A DNA stretch of 11,808 bases from a virus (lineage: Monodnaviria > Loebvirae > Hofneiviricota > Faserviricetes > Tubulavirales > Inoviridae): the IMG/VR virus record IMGVR_UViG_2563366858_000001, one strand, 5' to 3'. A program made the position numbers and the translations under genes. Positions 8,397 to 8,819 of the stretch are shown here, piece by piece. The stretch's first letter is position 1. Each line of letters opens with the position of its first letter. The notes under the pieces are model-generated. The model was given only the letters and a program-made list of their open reading frames with translations. It was not told the origin of the DNA and ran no database searches.

Positions 8397-8819
8397 ATGA
8401 TGAGTAGAAATAACGAAACAAGCGGCGTTGAATTGGTTGTCGTGGGCGTATTTGCTTTCTGTCTGGCAGTTGTTGCCTGGTTAATGAAAACTTTCGATGT
8501 TGAATGGCAAACAGCACTGGAAACTGCGCCTGGCCTGATAGTCTGGTTGCTTGTTGTCGGTGCGGGGATCTTTTTCGGGATCAAAATGGAAACAGGTCTT
8601 GTTCGCTGGGGTGCCCCACTGGCGATCGCCCTTCTGATTCCGGTATTCAAACCAATTCTTAAGGAAGCTGCCGGAGTACGTGAAATGGGTGGGTTGGTTT
8701 TCGATGATATGGTTTCGTGGTACGGAACTGGCTGGGGAATGTCTCTGATGTTTTTTGGAATTCTTATCGTCGGATACGGTCTGCTTTATTGGTGGCACCG
8801 AAGAAATTCATATTATTGA
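8397..8819 (+). CDS. Hypothetical small integral membrane protein (about 4 TM helices), 140 aa
   Basis: AAGGA RBS 6 nt upstream of ATG 8397. Four hydrophobic segments (LVVVGVFAFCLAVVAWL; GLIVWLLVVGAGIFFGI; APLAIALLIPVF; MSLMFFGILIVGYGLLYWW). The two antisense ORFs overlapping it lack such features. Confidence 0.6.
   Translation: MMSRNNETSGVELVVVGVFAFCLAVVAWLMKTFDVEWQTALETAPGLIVWLLVVGAGIFFGIKMETGLVRWGAPLAIALLIPVFKPILKEAAGVREMGGLVFDDMVSWYGTGWGMSLMFFGILIVGYGLLYWWHRRNSYY

Follow-up and report, generated by a model that had tools for sequence, protein, structure and literature searches.

Small inner-membrane proteins encoded beside a prophage repressor are classic superinfection-exclusion factors. 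RexB of phage lambda, a 144 aa protein with four membrane helices, is co-transcribed with cI in the order cI-rexA-rexB. SieA of the tailed phage P22 is a small (162-164 aa) polytopic inner-membrane protein of the prophage that alone blocks DNA entry; type A SieA has three predicted TM segments, and the protein carries a cytoplasmic C-terminal motif, FxRYPxEAxxFNK (PMC10883804). Genes of inoviruses can also exclude other phages (PMC6813254, PMC8764522). For example, the filamentous Pf prophage encodes PfsE, a very small inner-membrane protein that inhibits type IV pili and prevents superinfection (PMC8764522).

Some inoviruses integrate at dif and carry variable genes close to the attachment site. 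CUS-1, a prophage of E. coli O18:K1:H7 and a relative of Yersinia pestis YpfPhi, has two ORFs of unknown function, orf1 and orf1a, beside its attachment site (PMC4266046). [quoted passage not shown]

The DNA analyzed here (the window; 11,808 nucleotides, IMG/VR record IMGVR_UViG_2563366858_000001) is a stretch of E. coli chromosome with a filamentous (inovirus) prophage at 544-10125, located at dif and adjoining hipBA. A membrane protein gene lies between the repressor gene of this prophage and an AT-rich gene. Like rexB, it encodes a protein of ~140 aa and is found downstream of the repressor gene on the same strand, but the lambda order is not reproduced: there is no fixed RexA-like partner, and the neighbor is variable or absent. 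Homology to RexB was rejected (hhalign probability 0.05%, E 0.81), RexB being absent among the Pfam families listed. No sequence relationship to SieA was found, and neither the 139-aa sequence nor the family alignment contains the SieA C-terminal motif. The protein resembles PfsE in being encoded by a filamentous prophage and in its predicted location in the inner membrane, but it is larger (139 aa, four helices), and CUS-1-type phage has no known pilus receptor (PMC4266046). As described below, filamentous phages of the CUS-1 type, which integrate at dif in Enterobacterales, carry the membrane gene as a constant accessory gene; it closes the backbone on the repressor side and borders a slot in which cargo genes are exchanged.

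A CUS-1-type prophage at dif

The features of the window are as follows.

530-557, - strand: left prophage end; exact copy of the 28-bp E. coli dif sequence, ATTTAACATAATATACATTATGCGCACC as read on the + strand (sequence read)
1429-7682, - strand: inovirus backbone, with secretin pIV, Zot/pI, pVI-like, pIII-like, major coat, small protein, G5P and pII (Pfam, PHROG structural families, RefSeq annotation of an identical locus)
1429-2673, - strand: secretin (Pfam Secretin, 1e-24)
2673-3698, - strand: Zot-type assembly ATPase (Pfam Zot, 2e-26)
6301-6618, - strand: G5P ssDNA-binding protein (Pfam Putative_G5P, 1e-52)
6630-7682, - strand: pII replication initiator (Pfam Phage_CRI, 1e-73, also G2P_X_C)
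7854-8300, + strand: Cro/CI-type HTH phage repressor, 148 aa, divergent from pII (Pfam HTH_3, 1.6e-9; phrog_3557 transcriptional regulator, 4e-74)
8312-8368, + strand: structured intergenic region, with hairpin 1 (8312-8327), hairpin 2 (8329-8357) and the 11-mer CACGTTCTTTA (8352-8362) (RNA fold z = -4.7)
8387-8391, + strand: Shine-Dalgarno AAGGA of the membrane gene (read directly; conserved in relatives)
8397-8819, + strand: gene of the predicted four-helix membrane protein, conserved start 8400, stop TGA 8817-8819, phrog_4174
8822-10028, + strand: variable cargo cassette, with a palindrome (8824-8852) and the AT-rich gene (junction alignment, UTI89 comparison)
8921/8933-10024, + strand: AT-rich gene, 363/367 aa, phrog_17621
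10029-10125, + strand: attP-derived region, with two inverted dif-like sites (10031-10057, 10093-10123) around a GC hairpin (fold -48.4 kcal/mol, z = -7.4)
Beyond the AT-rich ORF, - strand: hipA and hipB

The element is a CUS-1-type dif-integrating filamentous prophage. Its modules and its dif/attP structure are those of the CUS-1/YpfPhi type, as are the gene order and the integration at dif, and it is nearly identical to the prophage of an O18:K1:H7 strain, UTI89. The UTI89 prophage is 99.3% identical to the window over 456-8821 (8366 bp) and matches again from 10029; the window prophage therefore belongs to the CUS-1 family. The attP of the CTXphi type is a forked hairpin formed from inverted dif-like sites, and the attP-derived region of the window folds as a long forked hairpin of this type. 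The circular 9565-bp "plasmid" of one E. coli assembly maps to 544-10125 and is the replicative form of the window prophage. Relative to this circular copy, 16 bp are duplicated at both prophage ends.

The membrane protein and its gene

The original prediction described a small polytopic membrane protein with a ribosome binding site, encoded between the repressor and the AT-rich gene, and the locus bears this out. The ORF at 8397-8819 (140 aa) lies between the HTH repressor gene and the AT-rich ORF, all three on the + strand. The AAGGA is spaced 5 nt from ATG-8397 and 8 nt from ATG-8400. Of the 24 relatives displayed in the alignment, 20 have G at position 8398; the conserved start is therefore the second ATG, at 8400, which gives a protein of 139 aa (MSRNN...) and is also the start annotated by RefSeq. 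The GC content of the gene is 0.47, that of the backbone genes and hipA is 0.41-0.48, and that of the AT-rich gene is 0.32.

The fetched loci contain 49 full-length copies of the membrane gene. Pairwise comparisons gave dN/dS values of 0-0.2 at dS as high as ~1.9, and the window protein is identical to that of one relative (L002; dN = 0) although dS between the two genes is 0.18. Strong purifying selection acts on the ORF, which is a real gene. The gene is already known in that it has been annotated as hypothetical, and by its position it is probably the orf1a of the CUS-1 literature.

The protein is predicted to be a four-helix inner-membrane protein. Four hydrophobic segments (11-29, 44-62, 66-88 and 112-133) are seen on the Kyte-Doolittle scale, of which 66-88 is weaker and proline-rich. 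AlphaFold2 modeled four helical segments with a mean pLDDT of 82.6 from a 28-sequence alignment reaching down to 21% identity; with close homologues only, the model was poor (pLDDT 65). Across the family, the N-terminus, loop 2 and the C-terminus together have 3.6 Lys/Arg per ~21 residues, against 2.4 per ~36 residues in loops 1 and 3, where acidic residues are denser. This distribution modestly favors an N-in/C-in topology.

The sole family match is phrog_4174, of unknown function (E 1.1e-84), in which residues 2-140 align with profile positions 1-139 of 140. Close homologues with 63-99% identity occur across Enterobacterales, in E. coli, Klebsiella, Salmonella, Citrobacter, Phytobacter, Pantoea, Lonsdalea, Pectobacterium, Kosakonia and Yersinia enterocolitica. 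In 1.8 billion representatives, a profile search detected no more than 39 clusters, nearly all the full-length ones being ~110-160 aa. The four hydrophobic segments recur in the aligned members, as do P73, P85, Y108 (part of a WYG motif) and G125, which are near-invariant; none of the conserved residues is charged or catalytic. Length and motifs are conserved down to 22% identity. The protein thus belongs to an orphan family of small membrane proteins.

Searches of other collections gave little. No family was found for the membrane protein in Pfam, NCBIfam or PADLOC, and PADLOC at E <= 0.1 gave 0 families both for it and for the AT-rich protein. When 28 family members were compared with Pfam at E <= 5, only scattered noise was seen (DUF2070 in three, DUF202 in two, a holin family in two). 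A profile search of PDB sequences returned a light-harvesting peptide alone (E 0.005), Foldseek against viral structures gave no match below E 0.6, and the gene was unmatched by tblastn and megablast in deposited phage genomes. A holin was considered and rejected: the element is a non-lytic inovirus without lysis genes, and the Phage_holin_3_6 match, in 2 of the 28 members, is very weak (E 0.33). The missing matches in Pfam, NCBIfam and deposited phage genomes would fit a chance ORF in an intergenic or origin region, but the probability of this is negligible in view of the low dN/dS over so large a dS, the length and motifs kept to 22% identity, the confident four-helix model, and the PHROG family and RefSeq annotation.

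A cargo slot behind the membrane gene

A hypervariable slot, in which self-contained AT-rich cargo genes are exchanged, lies between the stop codon of the membrane gene and attP. Comparison with UTI89 and alignment of the junctions place the exact cassette borders in the window at 8822 and 10028; between these positions UTI89 and the window are unrelated, and on both sides they are nearly identical. In UTI89, the interval from the repressor to the attachment site holds exactly two ORFs, which encode the 140-aa membrane protein and a protein of 369 aa, and the 367-aa protein of the window is only ~33% identical to the UTI89 type. The ORFs found first downstream of the 49 copies represent at least 13 unrelated classes, and in nearly all copies the attP-like site is reached 16-1237 nt beyond the stop codon. 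In two phages the slot is empty, and the stop codon of the membrane gene directly abuts the dif-like site.

All the cassettes are AT-rich (GC 0.31-0.38). Cassettes with recognizable domains encode AbiJ_NTD4 together with DUF7014 or Abi_C, or a TIR of the CAP12/Pycsar type. Another encodes a DpnII-MboI-type nuclease (PADLOC Aga_Helical-REase, 1e-34) with DUF6953, and yet another a zinc-ribbon protein with weak matches to defense models. Judged by such domain content, many of the cargo genes appear to be recognizable anti-phage genes. Several cargo proteins have no recognizable effector domain, and the AT-rich protein of the window has no match to RexA or to any other Pfam family. The window cassette also contains the palindrome at 8824-8852, with 12-bp arms and a fold z of -4.8. 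Assignment of the AT-rich gene as puvA was considered and dropped; according to a review, puvA encodes a receptor-binding virion protein (PMC4266046).

The slot has the properties of a pHVR: i) its position is fixed; ii) its content is unrelated in backbones that are ~99% identical; and iii) anti-phage genes are enriched in it. As in the Vibrio pHVRs, it lies by the lysogeny/attachment module of dif-integrating inoviruses. It differs in location, being on the repressor side, where the membrane gene and attP flank it and no xafT is present, and the membrane gene, unlike pHVR cargo, is a constant border outside the variable content. From the difference in GC, the membrane gene and the AT-rich gene had been predicted to come from different sources; the match to the Vibrio pHVRs and the AT-richness of the cassettes show that this was correct, 8822-10028 being a swappable cassette.

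The membrane gene itself is universal in this phage family. Among 5426 complete E. coli genomes, 128 have it (234 places), 115 have pII (215 places) and 17 have the AT-rich gene (31 places); the first two counts correspond to about one membrane gene per phage copy. The 139/140-aa gene is present at all ten places that encode an identical G5P, and six different sets of genes follow it there; a Yersinia pestis record was absent among the G5P look-up results. The gene is kept with three or four unrelated types of regulator (the 148-aa HTH, 60-89-aa RHH-like (ribbon-helix-helix) and DUF6471), and homologues with only 22-38% identity still directly follow a small same-strand transcription regulator. 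An 89%-identical copy is found on three backbones whose pII is not detectably similar. Of the distant homologues, one lies among the cargo of a Tn7-like element and others beside a PAAR-amidase cassette. In view of these last contexts, the role of the protein may not be phage-specific.

Inheritance as a block and an origin-like hairpin

The membrane gene does not follow the divergence of the backbone. Between the window and near-identical backbones, mismatches amount to ~0.2% over 5700-8300 and to ~4.5% over 8381-8821, all of them synonymous in L002. Where the backbone has diverged by ~10%, the divergence of the membrane gene is again ~4%. Its synonymous alleles track the cargo: UTI89, with a 99% identical backbone, and two phages with a 90% identical backbone share both the allele and a 369/374-aa cargo protein. 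Membrane gene, cargo and attP therefore move together as a single recombination block, the left breakpoint of which is sharp and lies near 8345-8381. Across seven of the cargo types compared, the membrane protein is identical or differs by 0-4 substitutions, so its tie to the cargo is one of linkage and not of functional co-adaptation.

At the breakpoint, the 11-mer at 8352-8362, which has a single match in the window, lies in the loop of a small GCAC/GTGC hairpin. The same bases occur within the M13 (+) origin hairpin, gagtccacgttctttaatagtggactc. This M13 hairpin holds the nick site of gpII, and the window pII is in the same Pfam family as M13 gpII. Of the two intergenic hairpins, hairpin 2 is conserved and hairpin 1 has changed in a compensatory manner in phages whose regulator is different. 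Region 8312-8368 could serve as terminator, as origin or as both at once. From the sequence likeness, 8352-8362 is a candidate replication origin, to be taken as a lead and not as a result; counter to the origin reading, the 11-mer is carried by the strand antisense to pII, and together with its T-run the hairpin is terminator-like.

Heterogeneous tandem prophages exist, two of which are side by side with different cargo. Formation of hybrid phage across tandem prophages is known for CTXphi. If 8352-8362 is an origin, rolling-circle replication over such tandem prophages would join the origin-to-attP block of one to the backbone of its neighbor.

Role of the membrane protein

As an overall explanation, we favor, with a probability of roughly 0.55, a conserved accessory gene next to a cargo slot, the gene being expressed in lysogens with a role in exclusion or in modification of the envelope. 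The membrane gene would be transcribed with or just after the repressor gene in lysogens. No promoter-like site was found between the two genes, so that read-through is the simplest reading, although it would have to cross the two hairpins; expression on the lysogeny side is also suggested because the homologues of 22-38% identity directly follow a small same-strand regulator. The protein would insert N-in/C-in into the inner membrane and act alone. Most likely, it would block the step at which incoming filamentous (or other) phages enter through the inner membrane, i.e., superinfection exclusion; alternatively, it may modify the host envelope. By analogy with the small membrane proteins of other prophages and from the position of the gene, this specific mechanism, a superinfection-exclusion or host/envelope-modifying membrane protein made in lysogens, is put forward tentatively, at clearly less than even odds. 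The partial protection of YpfPhi lysogens from superinfection is a precedent, but according to a review YpfPhi has unrelated ORFs at the position of the membrane gene (PMC4266046); exclusion in this phage family is therefore not dependent on the membrane protein. The failure to match any named family or fold and the lack of conserved charged or catalytic residues also count against this reading.

The original prediction took the membrane gene and the AT-rich gene (8921-10024) for a possible two-gene module. They are neighbors on one strand, the AT-rich gene in E. coli is always behind a membrane gene, and the membrane-gene allele of the window (>=99% identity) occurs essentially only with the AT-rich cargo. 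A dedicated module is nevertheless highly improbable, and the co-occurrence of the genes tells against it from both sides. Of the 128 E. coli genomes that have the membrane gene, just 17 (~13%) also have the AT-rich gene and 87% lack it, the slot being filled instead by at least 13 other cassettes or left empty. Conversely, the AT-rich protein has homologues (29-45% identity) on IMG/VR viral contigs and in genomic regions of Enterobacter, Proteus and Pseudomonas beside toxin-antitoxin genes, an integrase gene or Hcp; in these five contexts, a profile search that detected the positive controls found no membrane-gene homologue within 4-5 kb. Furthermore, the membrane protein is unchanged with other cargo (dN = 0 against L002), and a palindrome with 12-bp arms and a 101-nt spacer separate the two genes. 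The membrane protein is independent of any particular cargo, the AT-rich gene included, and the pairing is positional, not functional. A looser partnership, in which the constant protein is a membrane platform, a shared effector or anchor like RexB, and the slot cargo is the sensor of a modular two-part defense, is rather improbable. RexB has a similar size, four-helix topology and position after the repressor, the cargo always comes directly behind the membrane gene and is inherited in one block with its alleles, and several cargo proteins have no recognizable effector domain; but empty-slot phages retain the gene, the protein is (nearly) identical across seven of the cargo classes compared, many cassettes are self-contained known defense genes (AbiJ, TIR, REase), and the family of the AT-rich protein occurs elsewhere without the membrane gene. 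The failure to find homology to RexB in the membrane protein, or a RexA or other Pfam match in the AT-rich protein, also weighs against it. The most elaborate form of this idea, a plug-and-play defense locus borne by filamentous phages, with a fixed inner-membrane effector or docking part and exchangeable sensors that are reshuffled between tandem prophages at dif, would be a long shot.

A role in the phage life cycle, in virion assembly or secretion, membrane replication or stable carriage and unrelated to defense, is unlikely, though it accounts for several observations: there is about one membrane gene per pII copy in E. coli, purifying selection is very strong, empty-slot phages keep the gene, and it directly follows the M13-origin-like hairpin. 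It is at odds with YpfPhi, which, according to a review, is 99% identical to CUS-1 over 7.1 kb, has its unrelated ORFs there and still makes infectious, integrating virions (PMC4266046). The 89%-identical copy on backbones without a detectably similar pII, the distant homologues in non-inovirus contexts, and the location of the gene on the repressor strand, outside the replication-assembly operon, argue against it as well.

Significance

Prophages of this family are common in extraintestinal pathogenic E. coli, among them UTI89, NU14, UM146 and ST131, and their G5P protein is listed in >20,000 blocks of a public collection. The membrane gene is the one accessory gene that these phages almost never lose; being conserved and without an assigned function, it is a clean and cheap target for deletion and expression work. 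For the proposed two-gene module the outcome is mostly corrective. What is added is that the membrane gene forms the fixed border of a defense-gene exchange slot, that the block containing it is inherited as a unit, and that a candidate origin lies upstream. The slot is a compact site of defense-gene exchange in an E. coli inovirus, comparable to the Vibrio pHVRs, and a defined place to mine small single-gene defense candidates, including the 367-aa protein of the window. Exchange of an origin-to-attP block between tandem prophages may explain how the cargo genes move.

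Divergence breakpoint upstream of the membrane gene

The gene for the predicted four-helix membrane protein (8397-8819) appears not to share the history of the phage genes before it. When the window was compared with seven related loci (L002, L004, L012, L020, L026, L028 and L037), nucleotide divergence rose from ~0.2% in the shared backbone genes to ~4.5% in the membrane gene, the step lying immediately past a hairpin that resembles a filamentous phage origin:

8345-8381: divergence step, located by nucleotide comparison with the same seven loci
8352-8362: CACGTTCTTTA, in the hairpin loop; the M13 (+) origin nick hairpin contains these 11 bases too

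All of the membrane-gene changes between L002 and the window are synonymous. In the same locus comparison the membrane-gene alleles sort by the type of cargo, i.e. the exchangeable gene(s) between the membrane-gene stop codon and attP, and not by backbone. Because the divergence steps up at the origin-like hairpin and the alleles track the cargo, the sequences suggest that the block from the putative origin to attP is swapped among tandem prophages. One scaffold carries two adjoining prophage copies in tandem (L050 and L051) with unlike cargo: 155 aa and 123 aa proteins in one versus a DpnII-like nuclease and DUF6953 in the other. Among E. coli carrier genomes, the number of places per genome has a median of two and a maximum of 16.

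The regulator 5' of the membrane gene is also exchanged, among unrelated types: a 148-aa HTH protein, ribbon-helix-helix-like proteins of 60-89 aa, and DUF6471. Within E. coli, the point of exchange lies between hairpin 1 (8312-8327), which shows compensatory changes, and hairpin 2 (8329-8357), which is conserved.

60-aa regulator: L005, L006, L010, L015
89-aa regulator: L008, L009, L032
DUF6471 regulator: L041-L043
Regulator-swap locus: L034, 3122-3334

Prophage ends and left flank

530-557: exact dif site, left end of the prophage
698-946 and 1092-1340, - strand: pair of small ORFs without assigned function, flanked by the secretin gene and the dif end
10029-10125: two inverted dif-like sites, forked hairpin fold (z = -7.4), right end

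The paired inverted dif-like sites at the right end match the CTXphi-type attP arrangement. With dif at the left end and this pair at the right, the prophage therefore extends from 544 to 10125. The two small ORFs are probably, by position, the counterparts of YpfPhi YPO2280a and YPO2281; RefSeq annotates products of 65 aa and 82 aa, versus 82 aa for both ORFs in the window. The left host flank (window 1-480) consists of pseudogene fragments (alpha/beta hydrolase, LysR), as annotated by RefSeq in the identical locus (L001, 1-2151).

Palindrome at the cassette border and a recurrent two-hairpin element

8824-8852: perfect palindrome with 12-bp arms, ATATTACCCTAG GTTAA CTAGGGTAATAT, at the upstream edge of the cassette

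This palindrome begins 5 nt past the membrane-gene stop codon and could act as a terminator or as an operator of the cargo. A two-hairpin element, CCGTGGGAAACCACGG and then AAAGTTCGGGTGTCAC-N-GAACCCCGAAC, recurs among the loci and differs in location by lineage: it is found at the cassette border, 3' of the membrane gene, in L020, L023, L025, L027, L028 and L037, and 5' of the membrane gene in L008, L009 and L030. Its candidate roles are packaging signal, minus-strand origin and recombination signal.

Relatives of the membrane protein and the cargo

Homologues of the membrane protein at 22-27% identity occur outside recognisable inoviruses. One (L038) belongs to a Tn7-like transposon with TniB and TniQ, where it lies in the cargo region 3' of a ThiF-family gene; others (L041, L042) lie 5' of a PAAR-amidase toxin cassette (PAAR and Amidase_2).

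The AT-rich cargo gene of the window (8921-10024) encodes a 363/367 aa member of phrog_17621 that, judged by eye, seems to contain two hydrophobic segments, near residues 15-30 and 150-172. Relatives at 29-45% identity are found in viral contigs of IMG/VR as well as in Enterobacter, Proteus, Providencia, Serratia and Pseudomonas genomic regions (loci listed for this gene: L044-L048), where the neighbours are toxin-antitoxin genes, an integrase gene or Hcp. UTI89 and L028 carry a cargo of 369-374 aa that is also related, at 33% identity. The AT-rich protein is a candidate for defence or exclusion by a single gene.
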